Shown: piece by piece, positions 8,390 to 32,000 of the stretch
Numbering within the stretch: the first letter of the stretch is position 1
Layout: the number at the start of each line of letters is the position of its first letter
NCBI RefSeq assembly: GCF_000237865.1
Contig: NC_017459.1
Span: 2,190,001-2,222,000 of the forward strand
Origin: Haloquadratum walsbyi C23
GTDB lineage: Archaea > Halobacteriota > Halobacteria > Halobacteriales > Haloferacaceae
Direction: 5' to 3'
Length of the DNA: 32,000 bases
The notes under the pieces: generated by a model
Databases searched by the model: none
Told to the model about the DNA's origin: nothing
What the model saw: the letters and a program-made list of their open reading frames with translations, nothing else
Position numbers and translations under genes: made by a program

Positions 8390-8706
8390 CTCTCCCGCGG
8401 TTGAAGACCTGTCTCTTACCCATAAGTTCGTGGAGTCGTAACCGGACGTTTCAGACGCTGTCAGAGGTATTTTGAACGCAGAAAATCGAGGAGAGAGGCG
8501 ATTCAAACAGTGATATTGGCTGTGGGGGTTATAGAACGCCGGTAATCAACTCCACTACGATTGTTCCAAAGAGGTATTAAATCTGTAGATACCGAGGATT
8601 TCAGTTGTGCTCGCCGATCCCGATCCCGTTCCGCTAAAGTCTTGACTCGAGTTGTGGGTAAGAGATAGGGTTGAAGACGCGGGTATTCTCCTTGTACTCT
8701 ATAACT
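8390..8706 (-). mobile_element. solo LE-type palindromic unit (IS1341/PATE-like end), split by MITE copy 1
   Basis: With 8409-8678 removed, the sequence reads ...cccgcg gttgaaga cgcggg tattctccttgtactctataact. This is about 35 nt homologous to the unit upstream of the intact tnpB (20816-20830 plus 22771-22802). Confidence 0.5.
8409..8668 (+). mobile_element. MITE copy 1 (260 bp) with IS4/Tn5-like termini
   Basis: Termini are ctgtctcttaccca... and ...tgggtaagagatag. It is flanked by a perfect 10-bp direct repeat ggttgaagac (8399-8408 and 8669-8678). The interior is collinear with copies at 20831-21089 and 30590-30848. Confidence 0.85.
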
Positions 8707-11209: not shown

Positions 11210-12356
11210 GTGACGCGGGTTCAGCAGCTCCTATCACTGACACGAATAATCACGGCAGTAAATACTTGCACTAATCACTGTGAGACTGACACAGAGGTTG
11301 TCAAGAAGTCCGAACCCAACTGCACACTGCCGTATCGGACAAGGCGACTCTCACATCCACGAGCGATATATCAAAGATGGAAGCCTCGCTTTGTATTGAA
11401 CACCCCGGACTCGCTCCCACCAGAGAGTTATTACGGTTGGACGAAACAGAAATCCCGGTTCCCAACCACATTCTCGATTTTATTAGCTACCCGAAACTAG
11501 TAATATGAAAACGCCGGTACTCCACATGCCTGAGCATGTATACACGCTCGACGTGCCCGCTTTTATGACCGGGGGAAAATCTGAGACAGTTATAGACCGT
11601 ATATTGGTGGTCGATCTCAGTGTAAAAAACAGGTCGTGGCGATTGTCTTTGACAGCGGCGACGGGACACACAAACAACTAGCGCCGCACGGTTCCTCAGT
11701 TATCAAGCGAAGGGCAAATTATTCCAAGTGAAAGGGTTACCGACCTGCTGGCGGAGTTGCAGCAATAGGGCGAGCACGCACAGATCGGTCCCGATTCGAC
11801 CACCTGCCGAGTGAGTATCGCCAGACACGCCAGAAGGACCGGGAGTTATGCAAACAGATCTAGCACGATGTGACGACCAGTTGTGTGTGTCTGACAATCG
11901 AGATCAAGTGTGAGACTATCATTTTGAATCGCCCGGGGAGATTTAATCTCTTGATACAGCTGGTTCGCGTGGTCATGACTATTTCTTGCTCCTGCAGGTC
12001 TTGTCAAACATGTCGTAGAGCGGCGCATCGACTACGAGGTTGGTCGTATTGCCATCGGTGACGGTGAGTTAAGCGAGATTTATCGGGACGAGAGCAGCGA
12101 CTCACGAAATTGGAATAAATGTGGGAACAAGAAACTTCACAGATGGGAGTCCGACCGGCTCGCCACATTGCTCGAATATACGTCTGAAGAACACAGAATA
12201 CTCGTGAATCGTTTCAGGGTCGCATCAGATCAGCATCAATATCAAAGCCCTGGGGCACTCTCCCTCTTTCCCTGTAGACAGATAACCCAAACTCGGGATC
12301 CTCGTCAAGGGGCTGGGGCGGATGTCAACAGGGTATCAAACCAGTATGTTCAATAA
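11210..12356 (+). pseudogene. tnpB: heavily degraded tnpB (IS200/IS605-family OrfB) of a different lineage
   Basis: Pieces appear in three frames. VVDLSVKN (about 11603) is the RuvC-I region. VGRIAIGDGELSEIYRDESSDSRNWNKCGNKKLHRWESDRLATLLEYTSEEHRILVNRFRV (about 12040-12220) aligns to VGRINIGKLAGVRED...NWGKHGNLDLHGWAFDRFSNILEYKAKGEGIEV of the intact copy. GADVNRVSNQY is the RuvC-III NADxN motif. There are several stops and frameshifts and the zinc finger is missing. The 5' limit is uncertain. Confidence 0.5.
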
Positions 12357-19123: not shown

Positions 19124-19290
19124 TTACTGCGTACTGCGAGAATATTATATTCATCACTCTCAAGTTCTGATTTAGGATTGCGCACTGCATATGAGATGAT
19201 TCATATGTGAATCCTCACACAATCGTTGACTTTATGTCTCTATTTTTCTGTGGCACGCGCACAAAGGCGTGGCTGAGACATCTCGATCAA

Positions 19291-19480
19291 ATTGACATCC
19301 TCCTCCGCGTGAACGCGGAGGAATCCCACGGCACCACACCGCTTGGGTTGGGATATTAGGGTTTGCAGTCTCCCACCTCTGCCCGAGGTTGGAATCCTCG
19401 GGAAAGGTCATAAAGGTAGACTCCGGGCTGTGCCAACCAGCCGGTACTCCTATCCCCACCCAAATCGGGTGCAGACTCAG
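19291..19480 (-). ncRNA. predicted omega RNA (reRNA) scaffold region of the TnpB element
   Basis: By analogy with characterised TnpB systems, the guide RNA scaffold overlaps the tnpB 3' end and runs to the RE. A 9-bp hairpin tcctccgcg-tgaa-cgcggagga lies at 19301-19322. The 5' extent is not determinable by eye. Confidence 0.3.
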
Positions 19481-20720
19481 AGTTACTTTGATTAATGTCG
19501 AGACGGATATTCTCCGCCCCATTCACATCAGCGTTGAACGCATCCCCGTCGCCGTCGCCGTCGCCGTGTTCTTCACACACGTACAAGCCACGCTCAACAC
19601 GCTGACTCTCGTCTTCTCTCCCACAGACACAACACGTCTTGCTTGTGTCGCGCTCTGACACTTCTCCGACTTCGATTCCCTCACCCTTCGCTTTGTATTC
19701 GAGGATGTTCGAGAACCTGTCGAAGGCCCACCCGTGCAAGTCAAGATTACCGTGCTTCCCCCAGTTCTTCGACTCACCGTTACCGTTGTCGTCTTCGCGG
19801 ACACCAGCGAGTTTTCCGATGTTGATGCGCCCAACACCGTTTTCGATGCATCGCTGAACGATGTGTGTCGCCAAAGAGTGGAAAAAGTGGGTTCGGCGCT
19901 CCGACCACTTCGCATGGAGTCGAGTAGCCCTGTCACCACCAGAGTCATCACACTTGGCGATTTCTTTCGGGAAGTAGTAGCCGTCCTGTTTCAGGCGGTT
20001 GCCGGGGTAGAGGTCGGCTTCCTCGGTGCTGTACGAGATAGCGGCGAAGTTACAGATACCGAGGTCGATACCAGCAGTCTCGGTGCCGGGCGCGGTGGGT
20101 GTCTCGATTTCGTGCTTGCAGACGAGGTGAAGTTCCCACCGCTGTTTCGCCCTATCGTAGACTGTTCGAACCTGTTGGAGGTTCTCGACGGTGACACCGG
20201 GTGCGGTTTCGTACTCAATAAGGATGTATTCCCACGCTTTCGGGTGTTGTTTGTGATTCGCGCCTTTTGAGAGTCGAACGCGGTTGTTCTTGGTGTCGTG
20301 TTTGATGCCGTTCTGCTTCCACGTTACTGTTGAACGAGGGTGTTCTTCGTGGACGCGGCGACCCTGTTGGTCGTAGTAGTTTTTTTTGCGGTAGCCGGGC
20401 GGATTCGCTCGACTGTCAGACTTCCTCTTGCCGTACCACGAGTTGAAGGCTTCAGCGAGTTCCTCCAGAACGCGCTGACTGGATTGACTGTGCAATCCCT
20501 TGTAGTTATTGTGAGTCTTCAACTCGGTTTTGAGGTCGCCGTGGTCGGGTATCTCGCCCGTGGCTTCCCACTGTTGTCGAGAGTGGTAGTTGGCGACATT
20601 CCAGAGTTTCGATGCACTCCACCCATGCCGGTCAAGCGAGTCCGCTACCTGTGCGTGGTTGCAGATCTTCGCTTGATGGGTTCGGTGGACTTCCAACATT
20701 CTGAACGTCTGTATAATCAT
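19356..20720 (-). CDS. tnpB: TnpB (IS1341-type RNA-guided endonuclease, OrfB family)
   Basis: 454 aa. RuvC-I is AGIDLGICN. The zinc finger reads CCVCG...YVCEEHG. RuvC-III is FNADVNGAENI. An alternative start is Met8 (20699, MLEVHRT), with gtataaat about 25 nt upstream. Confidence 0.9.
   Translation of the reverse strand: MIIQTFRMLEVHRTHQAKICNHAQVADSLDRHGWSASKLWNVANYHSRQQWEATGEIPDHGDLKTELKTHNNYKGLHSQSSQRVLEELAEAFNSWYGKRKSDSRANPPGYRKKNYYDQQGRRVHEEHPRSTVTWKQNGIKHDTKNNRVRLSKGANHKQHPKAWEYILIEYETAPGVTVENLQQVRTVYDRAKQRWELHLVCKHEIETPTAPGTETAGIDLGICNFAAISYSTEEADLYPGNRLKQDGYYFPKEIAKCDDSGGDRATRLHAKWSERRTHFFHSLATHIVQRCIENGVGRINIGKLAGVREDDNGNGESKNWGKHGNLDLHGWAFDRFSNILEYKAKGEGIEVGEVSERDTSKTCCVCGREDESQRVERGLYVCEEHGDGDGDGDAFNADVNGAENIRLDINQSNSESAPDLGGDRSTGWLAQPGVYLYDLSRGFQPRAEVGDCKP
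19547..19568. repeat. hexanucleotide tandem repeat (cgtcgc x3 plus partial) inside tnpB, encoding GDGDGDGD
   Basis: Direct reading. The remnant copy at 6157-6363 has HGDMCNAD where this copy has HGDGDGDGDAFNAD. Confidence 0.8.
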
Positions 20721-20830
20721 TTATACTCGCTTCAGTATTAACGTTTGGTGTTTGAGAATGGTGGAATATCCCGTCCAGCCATCGGCGGTGGTTGCGGAGG
20801 AGTTGTCGGATTCATCCCGCGCCTGAAGAC

Positions 20831-21089
20831 CTGTCTCTTACCCACAACTCGAGTCAGGATTTTAGCGGAACGGGATCGGGATCGGCGAGCACGACTGAAA
20901 TCCTCGGTATCTACAGTTTCAGCACCTCTTTGGAACAATTGTAGTGAGCTTGATTACCGGCGTTCTGTCACCCCCACAGCCGATATCACTATTTGAATCG
21001 CTTCTCGCCTCGATTTTTTGATTCAAAATACCTCTGAGAGCGTCTGAAACGTCCGGTTACGACTCCACGAACGTATGGGTAAAAGACAG
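20831..21089 (-). mobile_element. MITE copy 2 (259 bp), inverted relative to copies 1 and 3
   Basis: Termini are ctgtctcttacccacaac... and ...tgggtaaaagacag. It is flanked by gcctgaagac at 20821-20830 and 21090-21099. The interior is nearly identical to copy 3; the ORF-track peptides across the two copies are identical. Confidence 0.85.
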
Positions 21090-21099
21090 GCCTGAAGAC

Positions 21100-22760
21100 C
21101 TGTCTCTTACCCATAACTCAATACTAGAGGGTAATTTCGACCAAATCAGGCATGAAAAGAAGAAATCAATCAAATTTCCATCAGTATCTGCCCAAGATTA
21201 GAGAAGTATCCATGAAGCCGCTTGGAAAGCTCAGCTGAACTCGTTATTTCGGCGGGTTCTGCTGAATGAGCCGCGAAGCGCGCTCATTCAGTACCGAGTT
21301 CGTATCCTTCAGCCCACATGCGTAGCTTCTGGAGTCCTTTCCACATCGTCTTCCACCCTGGTGGCGGATCTGAACCACGATCAAGATAACCGCCGAGTTT
21401 AGCCACGCTCACTGCGTATGATTTCCCATCTTGACCGCTCAATTCTGGAAATTTCGTTTCCAGAATTGTGCGCTCTGCCTCACTCAGCAGGACCGCCGGA
21501 GATACTGAACTATCATCACGAGCAAGTTCTCGTAGCTCCAGAACTTTCCACGCGATCACTGAATACATGCTCAACAACACTTCCATCCGCTCCCAAGTCT
21601 GCAGTTGCCGTTCTTCGATGTTACAGCCACTCTTGAGCACTTTATGCCAGTCTTCAATTCGCCAGCGGAGACCGTAATAGTCGATGAGTGTCAGCGTTTC
21701 CTCAAACTCTTCGACCGATTCAGTGGTGAGCAACACCCACTGAATCGGGTCGTCATTTTCACCGACCTCGTCAACTCTCACGACATTCACCTCGATTGAA
21801 CCCTCTTGTTCAGGATTATTCTTTGGCGCGCGCAACTCACACGTTCCAGTGGCTATCGACAACTCCGCTGTTCTCGCTTCGCGCCCACCTCCCTGTTGAA
21901 TCTCGATTGTTTTGCGACCTTGCTCGGCAAGGTCGCTGCTCCAGTCAAAGAGTTTTCCAGGTTCACCATCATCAGTCCAAATCCGTCGGTTTTGACTCGC
22001 TCGGATGATGAAGCCAGCATTTTCCATCTCTCTGGTGACTCCCTCGTAGAACGCGAATGAATCTGCGCCTCGGTCATGGATAAATAGCGGGCGGATATCG
22101 TCGGCAAGCCAGTCTCTGGCTTGCCTGTCGCCACGGCTCCATTTCTCATGTTCACTGTCAAGTTGAATCGGCTCTGCTTTGCCGTTGGCATCGTACTTCT
22201 CATCGGCCTGCTGGTCCTCGATCAGCGGCTGCTGATCGATGACCCCAGTCATTCGATGGGTCCGTGGATTGATTCCGATCGTGGAGTGAAGCTTGATACC
22301 TTCGAGATCCATTTCAGAGTTGCCAATATCGCCGAGACCCTCCTTGGAGGGGTGTCTCGGAAACACGAGTTCGGTGGTATCGGAGACAATCAGGAGTTCG
22401 TCTGACCGACTCACTCTTGATTGCTGTTGCTGCTTGTGAGCAGAGAGAACCTCGTTGGGATCCACACTCTCATTATCGCAAAATCGGTATGTAGCTTTTG
22501 TGGACGCCCAGTCTCCGCAGGCAGCAGGGATGGACTCGGCAGGTGAGCTGCCGAGTTCATCCCCAAGTTGTACTAGTCGGTCACTCAGGCGCTTGTCTCC
22601 AAACTCGGCTGATCGAAACTCCGTTTGAATCCATCCTGAAACATCCATGTCACACAGCTGCCCATCTTCATCGAGTTCTGGCTTCCAACTCCGTGAGCGA
22701 CGCCCCATCTACCAATCTTGGTTCGTCTACTCTTGTATTACACTTGTGGGTAAGAGACAG
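21100..22760 (-). mobile_element. IS4-family (IS50/Tn5-like) insertion sequence, 1661 bp
   Basis: Imperfect terminal inverted repeats are ctgtctcttacccataactcaatac and (reverse complement) ctgtctcttacccacaagtgtaatac. The first 10 nt equal the Tn5 mosaic end CTGTCTCTTA. The element is flanked by gcctgaagac at 21090-21099 and 22761-22770. Confidence 0.9.
21284..22708 (-). CDS. IS4-family DDE transposase (Tn5 Tnp-like)
   Basis: 474 aa. The N-terminus FGDKRLSDRLVQLG...ATYRFCDNESV is like the Tn5 Tnp DNA-binding region. DDE context is IVSDTTEL and FIHDRGADSF. The Y(2)R(3)E(6)K signature appears in YGLRWRIEDWHKVLK. Confidence 0.9.
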   Translation of the reverse strand: MGRRSRSWKPELDEDGQLCDMDVSGWIQTEFRSAEFGDKRLSDRLVQLGDELGSSPAESIPAACGDWASTKATYRFCDNESVDPNEVLSAHKQQQQSRVSRSDELLIVSDTTELVFPRHPSKEGLGDIGNSEMDLEGIKLHSTIGINPRTHRMTGVIDQQPLIEDQQADEKYDANGKAEPIQLDSEHEKWSRGDRQARDWLADDIRPLFIHDRGADSFAFYEGVTREMENAGFIIRASQNRRIWTDDGEPGKLFDWSSDLAEQGRKTIEIQQGGGREARTAELSIATGTCELRAPKNNPEQEGSIEVNVVRVDEVGENDDPIQWVLLTTESVEEFEETLTLIDYYGLRWRIEDWHKVLKSGCNIEERQLQTWERMEVLLSMYSVIAWKVLELRELARDDSSVSPAVLLSEAERTILETKFPELSGQDGKSYAVSVAKLGGYLDRGSDPPPGWKTMWKGLQKLRMWAEGYELGTE

Positions 22761-22986
22761 GCCTGAAGACGCGGGTATTCTCCTCGAAATTCTATAATAA
22801 CTCTGAGCATTCGCTTACACTGAATATCACAATGCAGTGATTGACCGGTACAGTACACAATGTGGCATAGTCGGCTTGTGACGTCGCCAAATGCTCATAT
22901 TGATACATTGTTAATATGATGAGGGAATATGTGTAATACCAAGAGACATACTCACGGTGCTATTGAGTTCCGCTATAACTAATACA

Positions 22987-24285: not shown

Positions 24286-24407
24286 GTGAATATAAAGATA
24301 ATAAATTCACAGATAGTTGAGTACATTGAGGAGATTCACTAGCAAATCTTTTGTTTCATTCATCAGAGTGCGTACGGCTAATTTTATAAGTTGACCAAGG
24401 CGAATGC

Positions 24408-24420
24408 CGGGGCTTGACCC
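24408..24420 (+). repeat. 13-nt direct repeat cggggcttgaccc, copy 1 (weak hairpin)
   Basis: Identical 13-mer at 24651-24663. Confidence 0.7.
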
Positions 24421-24647
24421 GTGTATGAAGCTGACGTGTAGTGTTATAAAATATAAATCACAGGATCATGAGTACTACGATGGACGACACCTGCTACATT
24501 CAGCTTCAAGTGCAAAAACACGGACGGTTGGATGGTCTGCTGTCGCCACAAGCTCGGTCGGGGAGAGGCCGAATCAACGCTTGTGGAGACTGTGCCCCCT
24601 GTAGATTTCCTTGTGAGATCTGCAAAGTGCGTCGTGGAAACAGGAAG

Positions 24648-24668
24648 CCTCGGGGCTTGACCCTGAGG
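24648..24668 (+). repeat. hairpin cctcgggg-cttga-ccctgagg containing 13-nt repeat copy 2
   Basis: 8-bp stem with one G:U on the plus strand, which would be an A-C mismatch on the minus strand. It lies 24 nt from the stop of the minus-strand gene 24692-24946. Confidence 0.6.
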
Positions 24669-24691
24669 CACTTCACATCCCATAATCAACA

Positions 24692-30589: not shown

Positions 30590-30848
30590 CTGTCTCTTAC
30601 CCATAAGTTCGTGGAGTCGTAACCGGACGTTTCAGACGCTCTCAGAGGTATTTTGAATCAAAAAATCGAGGCGAGAAGCGATTCAAATAGTGATATCGGC
30701 TGTGGGGGTGACAGAACGCCGGTAATCAAGCTCACTACAATTGTTCCAAAGAGGTGCTGAAACTGTAGATACCGAGGATTTCAGTCGTGCTCGCCGATCC
30801 CGATCCCGTTCCGCTAAAATCCTGACTCGAGTTGTGGGTAAGAGACAG
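30590..30848 (+). mobile_element. MITE copy 3 (259 bp), no target-site duplication
   Basis: Termini are ctgtctcttacccataag... and ...tgggtaagagacag. The flanks are cttggtaatc (left) and accttgacga (right) and do not match. GC content jumps at 30849. Confidence 0.85.
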
Positions 30849-31287
30849 ACCTTGACGACGACCCGGCCTACCTGGCGATCCCGCATCCAGAAGGACTACC
30901 CGACCGACCGCTCGACCAGCTACGAAGAAGTGAACCTCGCTGTCGATGACAGCACCTACGACACGGTCTCGCGGCTCCGGTCGTACCTGAACAACCGCTG
31001 GCGGGACAGCGAGGCACTGTCCCCGTCGCGGCAGGCCGACCGGATGACCACCGAGAGCGTTCGGCGTGTCATCCGCTCGCTGACCGTGGAGGCCGACGTG
31101 CGCCCGCAGAGCATCGAGGGCGGGCAGGCGACCCTGAGGACGTGACGCCCACACGCTTCGGCACAGCGTCGCTTACAGGATGCTCCACGAGGAGGACGGC
31201 TACACTCTATACGATGTCCGGAACCGGCTGCGCCACGCAACAATCAAAACAACCGAAGAACGGTACGACCATTTCGACCGCATCTGA
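30849..31287 (+). pseudogene. tyrosine recombinase (phage-integrase family) gene fragment, 5'-truncated and frameshifted
   Basis: Frame 0 gives ...ALSPSRQADRMTTESVRRVIRSL...IEGGQA. Frame 1 gives PEDVTP. Frame 2 gives HTLRHSVAYRMLHEEDGYTLYDVRNRLRHATIKTTEERYDHFDRI*, which contains the R, H-x-x-R-type box and the catalytic Tyr region. Frame changes occur at C-runs near 31132-31135 and 31148-31150. Confidence 0.7.
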
Positions 31288-31289
31288 CC

Positions 31290-31772
31290 ATGACGGAAGA
31301 CGACGTTGGTCCCAAGAACCCGCAGCCGGAAGGACACTACCCGCGCTTCGCGGACAACAAGTGGCACTACGTCCCCGACGAGTTGGCGCAGACGATCTCG
31401 CTCGGGCCGGCAGGCGACGGTGAGGAAGGCCAGGACTGGGTGCTAACGTACACGCCCGAGCGGCGAAACGAAGATGACCGGGAGAAAATTCTCGTTCGAC
31501 TGACGCCACGCGCGCTGCACGAGCTGTACATCGAGACAAAGGGCGCCTCTCAGCAGACCAGCGGATGTACGGGCACAGCGCAGAGTGCGACCCTTGCGGC
31601 GACCAGGTCGATCTCGACGAGGCGATTCCGAACCAACGCGGGAAGCCATGCCACAGACGCTGTTAGGCCGAGTACACTGGCGCGCCAGACTGGTTCAGCG
31701 ACTACGTGTAGCGAGAGACGGGAAACAGCAGGAAGACGGTGGCGAGGAACCCGGTTTACCGGACGTGAGTAG
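31290..31772 (+). CDS. hypothetical ORF in GC-rich segment; only about the first 85 codons look protein-like
   Basis: The N-terminal part is MTEDDVGPKNPQPEGHYPRFADNKWHYVPDELAQ...LHELYIETKG. After that the frame turns Arg/Ser/Thr-rich, typical of read-through in GC-rich DNA. Another frame (31565-31711) reads MYGHSAECDPCGDQVDLDEAIPNQRGKPCHRRC-TAG-AEYTGAPDWFSDYV. Confidence 0.3.
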   Translation: MTEDDVGPKNPQPEGHYPRFADNKWHYVPDELAQTISLGPAGDGEEGQDWVLTYTPERRNEDDREKILVRLTPRALHELYIETKGASQQTSGCTGTAQSATLAATRSISTRRFRTNAGSHATDAVRPSTLARQTGSATTCSERRETAGRRWRGTRFTGRE

Positions 31773-31814
31773 GAGGAGGGTTGAGGCCGGGAAGATGCCC
31801 TTCTAGAACGCTGG

Positions 31815-32000
31815 CTACGCCGATGCCGGGGATTCGGACGAATCACCGAGCGACTTGGTCAGTTCAACCTCAATCTTGACCGTGTCGTACGGGACATAGG
31901 GCTGCTTCGCGCCGCCCTCTTCACGGAAGTGGACGATCCGGTACTCGGCCAGAGTCTGAACATCGTCGTGGACCTGCCGGATGTCACGGTCGAGGCGGTC
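31815..32000 (-). CDS. 3' end of a hypothetical gene continuing beyond the window
   Basis: The minus-strand frame is open from the window edge to TAG (31815-31817). It reads DRLDRDIRQVHDDVQTLAEYRIVHFREEGGAKQPYVPYDTVKIEVELTKSLGDSSESPASA, with codon-like GC3 bias. Confidence 0.4.
   Translation of the reverse strand, partial: DRLDRDIRQVHDDVQTLAEYRIVHFREEGGAKQPYVPYDTVKIEVELTKSLGDSSESPASA

Follow-up and report, generated by a model that had tools for sequence, protein, structure and literature searches.

The occupied palindrome and its surroundings

The window considered here is a 32,000-nucleotide stretch of the Haloquadratum walsbyi C23 genome (NC_017459.1, positions 2,190,001 to 2,222,000), and it contains a site at which a Tn5-like insertion sequence (IS) and a noncoding MITE (miniature inverted-repeat transposable element) lie back-to-back in a single palindrome (Table 1). 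The 10-mer GCCTGAAGAC is found at the outer flank of the MITE, at the MITE/IS junction, and at the outer flank of the IS, as described in an earlier note on this DNA, and nowhere else in the window. Three copies compare with 0.07 expected by chance, and three or more were seen in 0 of 100 shuffles. When 20831–22770 is removed in silico, the CCCGCG-N8-CGCGGG hairpin reconstructed in the note is recovered as CCCGCG-CCTGAAGA-CGCGGG, in the context ...ATCCCGCGCCTGAAGACGCGGGTATT...; as single-stranded DNA, this site has a 6-bp stem and an 8-nt loop (−7.9 kcal/mol, z = −2.2). The palindrome is real, but it is not free-standing: it is the 5′ (left-end, LE) subterminal hairpin of an IS605-type element that carries TnpB only, a host element missed by the earlier note. 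We read the locus as three nested mobile elements and consider it likely that the IS and the MITE were placed by a target preference intrinsic to the transposase family of the IS, which identifies by its sequence as ISHwa2.

The window ISHwa2 has inverted repeats of ~17 bp per end, and the sequence that the MITE and the IS have in common is limited to the terminal ~17–20 bp. At 21076–21113, the abutting inverted repeats of the two elements, together with the intervening 10-mer, make up a new 38-bp near-perfect palindrome, TGGGTAAAAGACAG-GCCTGAAGAC-CTGTCTCTTACCCA, which could be a hotspot for recombination or deletion.

Table 1. Repeats and elements of the locus, with a second occupied hairpin of the window (TSD, target-site duplication; LE and RE, left and right ends of the host element)
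Feature	Position	Strand	Sequence or remark
IS605-type (IS1341-group) TnpB-only host element	19292..22793	-	
RE (3′) terminus and subterminal hairpin, intact, unoccupied	19292..19321	-	CCTCCGCG-TTCA-CGCGGAGG-AGGATGTCAA on minus strand
tnpB open reading frame, 454 amino acids, intact	19356..20720	-	Pfam OrfB_IS605 (5.5e-28), Cas12f1-like_TNB (2.2e-14)
Left arm CCCGCG of split LE hairpin	20816..20821		preceded by GGATTCAT, reverse complement of conserved GGATGAATC motif
TSD copy 1	20821..20830		GCCTGAAGAC
MITE, HqIRS35 family, 259 bp, noncoding	20831..21089		ends CTGTCTCTTACCCA and CTGTCTTTTACCCA
TSD copy 2, common to MITE and IS	21090..21099		GCCTGAAGAC
ISHwa2, Tn5-like, IS4 family, 1661 bp	21100..22760	-	both ends perfect CTGTCTCTTACCCA
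ISHwa2 transposase open reading frame, intact, 474 amino acids	21284..22708	-	
TSD copy 3	22761..22770		GCCTGAAGAC
Right arm CGCGGG and outer LE segment	22770..22793	-	minus strand AGAATTTCGAGGAGAATACCCGCG, out to 5′ terminus of host element
TTAT, tetranucleotide preceding host element insertion	22794..22797	-	no duplication
Second occupied hairpin	8394..8683		MITE 8409-8668; TSD GGTTGAAGAC at 8399-8408 and 8669-8678

Without the MITE, the IS, and the extra target-site duplications (TSDs), which together take up 1940 bp, the host element is 1562 bp long. Each of its ends has a subterminal hairpin, and it lacks both terminal inverted repeats and a TSD. Minus-strand sequence across its LE is TTAT, outside the element, followed by AGAATTTCGAGGAGAATACCCGCG-TCTTCAGG-CGCGGGATGAATCCGAC, and its right-end (RE) terminus is ...GGATGTCAA, with an RE hairpin that folds into a stem of ~8–9 bp and a 4-nt loop (−11.0 kcal/mol, z = −5.0). 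Both ends are close to ISHwa24/HqIRS54-type termini (PMC3119063, Table S9), and relatives with 80–83% identity, annotated as RNA-guided endonuclease TnpB, are present on many haloarchaeal plasmids. The element is without tnpA, and TnpA is presumed to be supplied in trans. Three metagenome contigs (L125–L127 in our numbering of collected loci), 97–99% identical to the window on both sides, fuse 19290 straight to 22794, between two chromosomal genes. The block that they lack is thus an insertion 3′ of TTAT without a duplication of its own, as expected of the IS200/IS605 family, and TTAT also precedes homologous ends in loci L122, L124, and L136. A role for the palindrome as a terminator or promoter of the flanking genes was considered and dropped because its flanks are IS605-type termini and the whole block is an insertion.

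The bases that adjoin the 3′ end of the host element (19281–19291) differ between the window and the three contigs (TCGATCAAA, TTGCTCAACAT, and TACTCAAAT) and form a small hypervariable patch right at the insertion point. Further GGATGTCAA motifs, the IS605-type 3′ signature, at 12320 and 27260 on the plus strand suggest additional ends of IS605-type elements or of palindrome-associated elements (PATEs). A 287-bp segment at 24385–24671, which is not in contigs L125 and L126 and ends in ...GAAGCCTCGGGGCTTGACCCTGAGGCACTTCAC, has a 3′ end nearly identical to that of the published H. walsbyi PATE HqIRS46; it is the second insertion that differs between strains, here of a palindrome-associated element.

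An intact version of the LE hairpin is provided by a homologue from Salinigranum marinum, in which the same 5′ end is unoccupied and holds one copy of the 10-mer (GGATTCATCCCGCGCC-TAAA-GGCGCGGGTATTCTCCTCGAA...CTATAA). A tandem 10-mer repeat that predated the insertions, which the earlier note had named as grounds for refutation, is excluded by this single-copy hairpin. In the homologous hairpin CCCGCGCC-TAAA-GGCGCGGG, a stem of 8 bp closes a 4-nt loop (−11.7 kcal/mol), and the window hairpin, with a C.A mismatch in its upper stem, looks like a slightly decayed version of the Salinigranum type. Judged by the homologous hairpins, the duplicated 10 bp are the 4-nt loop with 3 bp of stem on either side; the description of the duplication as an 8-nt loop plus its closing G–C pair is right for the window, but in the homologues it gives way to this arrangement.

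Both nested elements have been catalogued before, the IS as ISHwa2 and the MITE as HqIRS35. H. walsbyi HBSQ001 (AM180088.1) has a single ISHwa2 copy, to which the IS is 98.1% identical in nucleotide sequence over its full length. A 90% cluster that includes the named ISHwa2 proteins CAJ52575.1 and CCC40581.1 has a representative with 98% identity to the window transposase. The transposase contains the Pfam domains Tnp_DNA_bind (2.8e-22) and DDE_Tnp_1 and the Y-2-R-3-E-6-K (YREK) signature of the IS4 family (YGLRWRIEDWHKVLK at residue 345), and phmmer matches residues 24–415 to Tn5 transposase (PDB 1MUS, E = 4.6e-37), with an additional weak C-terminal match. Exact-protein look-ups of the window transposase, the window TnpB, the neighboring binding protein, and the C23 ISHwa2 found none on record. 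Against the terminal signature of the IS50 subgroup, CW------Y---CA-A--W- (from the IS4-family review, PMC2266710), CTGTCTCTTACCCAYAA agrees at positions 1, 2, 9, 13, 14, and 16. The 10-bp TSD and 1661-bp length fall outside the 8–9 bp and 1350–1550 bp of that subgroup; some ISHwa2 relatives are 1489–1492 bp long, and the TSD is 10 bp in 24 of 41 paired elements elsewhere (among the matches listed). That the duplication is 10 bp rather than the 9 bp of Tn5 was stated correctly in the earlier note and had already been documented: ISHwa2 is recorded as Tn5-type, 1661–1668 bp, with a 10–11-bp TSD, and HqIRS35 as its MITE, 241–266 bp, with a 10-bp TSD (PMC3119063, Table S8). The window has three MITE copies (20831–21089, 8409–8668, and 30590–30848) of 259–260 bp, 92–94% identical to a MITE of strain HBSQ001 (93.5% for the 20831 copy); we infer from its size, ends, and TSD that this reference MITE is the catalogued HqIRS35.

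In 2011, ISHwa2 was viewed as essentially absent from other Archaea (PMC3119063). ISHwa2 and its MITEs are present in many haloarchaeal genera. Halorubrum and Halorhabdus tiamatea (in the latter under the name ISHti4) have transposases at least 90% identical to that of ISHwa2, and relatives with 65–85% identity occur in many genera and on megaplasmids, which points to extensive horizontal spread. Several 10–16-bp intergenic indels bounded by 10-bp direct repeats, listed in a comparison of H. walsbyi strains (PMC3119063, Table S6), could mark places from which ISHwa2 or HqIRS35 was excised while the TSD stayed behind.

Target sites in other genomes

To characterize insertion sites beyond the locus, we scanned one genome per species with the terminal repeat of the element as the only pattern; the counts in this section are among the matches listed. 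About 40 bacterial 16-mer matches, mostly from Clostridia, have a conserved unrelated flank (...GTTA.TGT.CCTAT...) and were left out as a different sequence family. A 10-mer whose outer 3 + 3 bases are self-complementary adjoins 58 of 100 haloarchaeal ends, compared with 2.4% of random 10-mers from the same loci (p ~4e-67). When the longer stem is considered, at least 7 of 9 pairs centered on the TSD are formed in 10 of the 23 elements with a perfect TSD, a degree of pairing found at 0.26% of random positions (p ~2e-20). IS605-type LE or RE motifs were recognized in at least 77 of the 117 unique flanks. The strong and specific targeting proposed in the earlier note from this one locus is therefore borne out, for the IS and for the MITEs, and the heterogeneous, nonpalindromic targets that would have counted against it are not what was found, either at the second window MITE or at the haloarchaeal ends.

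The flanks also define a target sequence. From 97 unique flanks, the consensus is CCC-N2-[S-N-C-T-N-N-A-G-N-S], where the brackets enclose the duplicated 10 bp. T4 is present in 89/97 and A7 in 92/97, and the outer CCC positions are conserved in 73–80/97. The full target is CCC-N2-[SNCT-NN-AGNS]-N2-GGG, ~20 bp long and twofold symmetric. Both orientations relative to the hairpin are used without evident bias, and in hairpins with 5-nt loops the register of the duplication tracks T-NN-A. Even at sites without a hairpin, which have clean 10-bp TSDs, T4 and A7 are each retained in 5 of 7.

Individual sites conform to this pattern. Full-length IS copies were found in seven plasmid records from five genera; five have a perfect TSD on a hairpin tip, and the other two lie between halves of two different hairpins. 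The second occupied hairpin of the window, CCCGCG-GTTGAAGA-CGCGGG, lies in a ~43-bp stretch common to the first site. Its MITE is carried by a ~47-bp LE-like sequence, probably a ‘terminal-only’ PATE whose extent we infer, as no empty allele was seen; metagenome contig L126 has this insertion too. In strain HBSQ001, an ISHwa2 copy and a MITE 1 kb away are both in LE ends, each with TTAT before it. In Haloplanus, a homologous TnpB element holds a related MITE at this very position, but oppositely oriented. The copies of the host element in Natribaculum breve are ~99.6% identical, and their MITEs are 93–98% identical, with identical flanks at several sites. As the MITEs are more divergent than the elements that carry them, these insertions are separate hits and not one composite that multiplied; multiplication of host element and MITE as a unit, which would have inflated the sample, is ruled out on the same identities. 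Taken together, the sites show that hairpin-tip targeting is family-wide and is the same for ISHwa2 and its MITEs.

On a plasmid of Natribaculum breve, a MITE with a perfect TSD (L050, 5718–5973) is in a hairpin between an RE terminus and an LE terminus. The carrier is a ~50-bp ‘terminal-only’ PATE, and minimal PATEs are thus also targets.

Many copies elsewhere are without a matching TSD as well (L005, L013, L016, L022, L073, L103, L105, L118, L130, and L134). On the left of each such copy is half of one hairpin and on the right the complementary half of a different one, in many cases the outer sides of an LE and an RE, which argues for recombination between copies or for loss of a host core between two occupied hairpins. 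The third MITE of the window (30590–30848), 98% identical to the 20831 copy, likewise has no TSD, with CTTGGTAATC on its left and ACCTTGACGA on its right. To its right (31001–32000), G+C content climbs from ~48% to 63%, which suggests either a MITE-mediated rearrangement or the border of acquired foreign DNA.

The same terminal repeat occurs in bacteria, namely in the metagenome-assembled genome (MAG) OY769902.1 (L029, L048, and L087) and in Ktedonobacter sp. SOSP1-85 (L019/L057). The MAG has 396-bp MITEs with 10-bp TSDs, some at the tips of GC-rich hairpins such as CCCCCGGC-TTTA-GCCGGGGG. For Ktedonobacter, the two sampled ends have the IS605-like flanks GAGAAAGCCCCGG and GATTCATCCCCG, the latter the reverse complement of ...GGATGAATC. 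The targeting may therefore extend beyond Archaea.

Origin of the double occupancy

The following sequence of events would account for the locus. An IS605-type TnpB-only element entered 3′ of TTAT between two chromosomal genes, and its LE hairpin, a structure that a Y1 (TnpA) transposase would recognize, then took both ISHwa2 and HqIRS35, each through the same 10-bp staggered cut centered on the hairpin tip. The preference intrinsic to the ISHwa2 family would be for a ~20-bp twofold-symmetric site, and in haloarchaea nearly all such sites are end hairpins, either of IS605-type elements or of PATEs. We picture a symmetric dimer of the Tn5 type that recognizes both half-sites (CCC...T / A...GGG) on duplex DNA, with the attacks on the two strands offset by 10 bp around the dyad. 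Once one element had inserted, either copy of the TSD would be left with the 10-bp core and one outer half-site, and a second hit into one of these copies in the same register would produce three 10-mers. No special mechanism need be invoked for the second hit. With ~100 IS605-type elements, ~180 PATEs, and ~40 copies of ISHwa2 and HqIRS35 per genome (PMC3119063), a few hundred hairpins are available, and by our own reckoning an occasional double hit is expected by coincidence. The identical 10-mers, the intact open reading frames, and the absence of the block from close relatives suggest that these events were recent. The split LE hairpin probably impairs the TnpA-dependent mobility of the host element, and the IS and the MITE likely sit in a harmless, multicopy site.

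The alternative that fares best, although we think it unlikely, is that the transposase recognizes structure, in the form of an extruded cruciform or of a hairpin in DNA that is single-stranded at a replication fork or in an IS605 single-strand intermediate. The stems of the targets vary (CCCAC/GGC, CCCCG/CCC, and CCCGC/GCC) while pairing and the centered register are retained, and the same arrangement is found on hairpins of different sequence in the bacterial MAG and in Ktedonobacter, as this explanation would predict. The host element's function by itself would make the stems covary, however, and at the second hit the arms of the hairpin were already 259 or 1661 bp apart, so that the small hairpin could not have formed. 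A 10-bp TSD, moreover, arises only when the two strands of a duplex are attacked at staggered positions, as in Tn5 chemistry. The inability of the small hairpin to form at the second hit, the retention of T4 and A7 at nonhairpin sites with clean 10-bp TSDs, and the register at 5-nt loops together favor recognition of sequence, without proving it.

A single event is less probable still. A preformed composite of MITE, 10-mer, and IS (1930 bp) could have landed in a hairpin tip with the same 10-mer that it carried as an internal spacer. Such a composite is mechanically possible, given the correct inversion of its two outer ends (20831 and 22760), and identical hairpin tips can occur within one IS605-type family, as the identical flanks in Natribaculum breve illustrate. 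The explanation would require that the internal spacer agree with the new target at 10/10 positions, however, and it only shifts the question of how a hairpin came to be doubly occupied to another hairpin, identical to this one. Neither the 124 collected loci nor a scan of viral contigs yielded another abutted junction (IR-N10-IR, where IR is inverted repeat).

We give very little weight to the idea that the pattern reflects retention and not preference, with near-random insertion and survival only in dispensable mobile-element DNA. Insertions inside other mobile elements would be neutral, and Haloquadratum mobile elements do tend to sit within other mobile elements (PMC3119063). Retention cannot account for a register held to the single nucleotide, with the TSD centered on the tip and T4 and A7 in >90% of flanks (among the matches listed), nor for independent MITE variants at an identical position in near-identical host copies, and neutral intergenic and mobile-element DNA far exceeds hairpin tips. 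Equally improbable is an assembly artifact that merged a MITE haplotype and an IS haplotype of the same hairpin in tandem: the two elements share ~17-bp ends plus the 10-mer, haloarchaea are polyploid with heterogeneous populations, and the locus is polymorphic in metagenomes, but the join of MITE end, 10-mer, and IS end would be found in neither haplotype, and k-mers longer than ~30 should not create it.

Several points weigh against placement by an intrinsic preference and successive hits. The genome-scan counts are among the matches listed, which include one H. walsbyi tile; of these sites, ~15–20% are nonhairpin. All of the hairpin targets are homologous to one another, and their conserved positions could reflect the ancestry of IS605-type ends and not the needs of the transposase. 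At the locus itself, the window hairpin is a weaker version, with a 6-bp stem and a mismatch, and the split site kept one outer half-site only, so that sufficiency of a half-site is assumed. The search for empty or singly occupied alleles proposed in the earlier note yielded the three contigs without the whole host element; none was singly occupied in a metagenome scan with the unique flank. Thus, the part of the claim of two events that concerns the shared 10-bp register stands, whereas their succession is deduced; the insertions may have come in either order, at this chromosomal position or in a previous location of the host element. There is also a slight chance of an assembly error at the MITE/IS junction. 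Lastly, recognition of duplex DNA and recognition of a cruciform or single-strand hairpin cannot be told apart from sequence. We nevertheless favor the intrinsic preference.

If placement by preference is right, a broader suggestion can be made, more tentatively: the ISHwa2 clade may be a naturally site-selective Tn5-type transposase whose target module evolved for the TnpA-binding hairpins of IS605-type elements, and for REP-like hairpins (REP, repetitive extragenic palindrome) in some bacteria. The clade would then be a ‘hyperparasite’ of the most abundant class of haloarchaeal transposons, and its hosts would be safe, multicopy, horizontally traveling landing pads in which the hairpin needed for mobility is split. 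Two very abundant classes of mobile elements would be linked. Because insertion splits a hairpin recognized by TnpA, it may immobilize TnpB/IS605-type elements and seed rearrangements. The rule would account for the nesting of mobile elements in one another, in Haloquadratum as in other haloarchaea, and would be a simple aid to finding where IS605-type elements and PATEs begin and end. In genomics, Tn5 serves as the standard near-random transposase, and here a close natural relative appears to direct most of its insertions to one ~20-bp symmetric motif. Insertion in a single-nucleotide register could be useful for understanding target choice by DDE transposases, and if the specificity resides in a transferable part of the protein, this relative could be a natural template for a site-directed Tn5.

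Comparison with known systems

The two inserted elements agree with ISHwa2 and HqIRS35 (‘Duanwu’) as described (ISfinder; PMC3119063) in length, inverted repeats, and TSD and are the same elements. In that description, palindrome targeting is ascribed in the main text to SMR-A repeats, and the supplement reports two ‘switch repeat’ cases, in which HqIRS35 is at the same PATE position in opposite orientations in two strains. What it says of ISHwa2 and HqIRS35 does not include a hairpin-tip rule, a consensus, the behavior of the IS, or back-to-back double occupancy, and the literature that we searched has no account of the rule, its consensus, its spread across genera, or the double occupancy. 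The family-wide hairpin-tip rule for this Tn5-like clade appears to be undescribed.

The target consensus of Tn5 is A-GNTYWRANC-T. The preference of Tn5 is weak and palindromic (PMC1525189), whereas the target of ISHwa2 is strongly restricted. The two transposases are homologous over nearly their full length, with an N-terminal DNA-binding domain, a DDE domain, and the YREK signature common to both; ISHwa2 differs from the IS50 subgroup in its TSD (10 compared with 8–9 bp) and in its length (1661 compared with 1350–1550 bp; PMC2266710). The earlier note had called such specificity unusual for IS4/Tn5-type enzymes. This holds for Tn5, but within the IS4 family ISRm22 and IS231A are precedents.

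The target consensus of IS231A is GGG-N5-CCC. Like ISHwa2, this IS4-family element prefers a symmetric target at another transposon's end, in its case within the terminal repeats of Tn4430 (for its insertion specificity, see PMC2266710). It belongs to a different subgroup, has CAT ends and a 10–12-bp TSD, and uses a Tn3-family host, and its target is not a Y1-recognized hairpin.

The closest parallel in target type is with the ISs that insert into REPs, including IS1397/ISKpn1 (IS3), ISPa11, ISPpu9, ISPpu10, IS621 (IS110), and ISRm22 (IS4) (PMC1525189), the last an IS4-family precedent for REP insertion. Copies of these ISs are found almost exclusively in short, repeated, GC-rich extragenic palindromes; among the matches listed, most copies of the ISHwa2 family are likewise within a repeated palindrome family at a fixed position, which is the mark of the palindrome-targeting class. 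For IS1397 and ISKpn1, choice of target by the transposase itself has been shown experimentally; the ISHwa2-family transposase may likewise choose its own. REPs are similar to the subterminal hairpins of IS200/IS605 elements (PMC3333891). Unlike the REP-targeting ISs, ISHwa2 belongs to a Tn5-like subgroup, has MITEs with the same specificity, and leaves a TSD exactly over the hairpin tip, and its targets are not REPs but the functional end hairpins of archaeal TnpB/IS605-type elements and of PATEs.

The SMR-A repeats (HqIRS42, HqIRS43, and HqIRS55) also enter near-terminal palindromes of PATEs and IS605-type transposons (PMC3119063). They have no TSD, no known transposase corresponds to their inverted repeats, and how they are mobilized is unexplained, whereas ISHwa2 and HqIRS35 have clean 10-bp TSDs and an identified DDE transposase. 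Overall, because the elements, the 10-bp TSD, and the idea of palindrome targeting were already known, the double occupancy and the hairpin-tip rule extend known biology and do not constitute a new kind of system.

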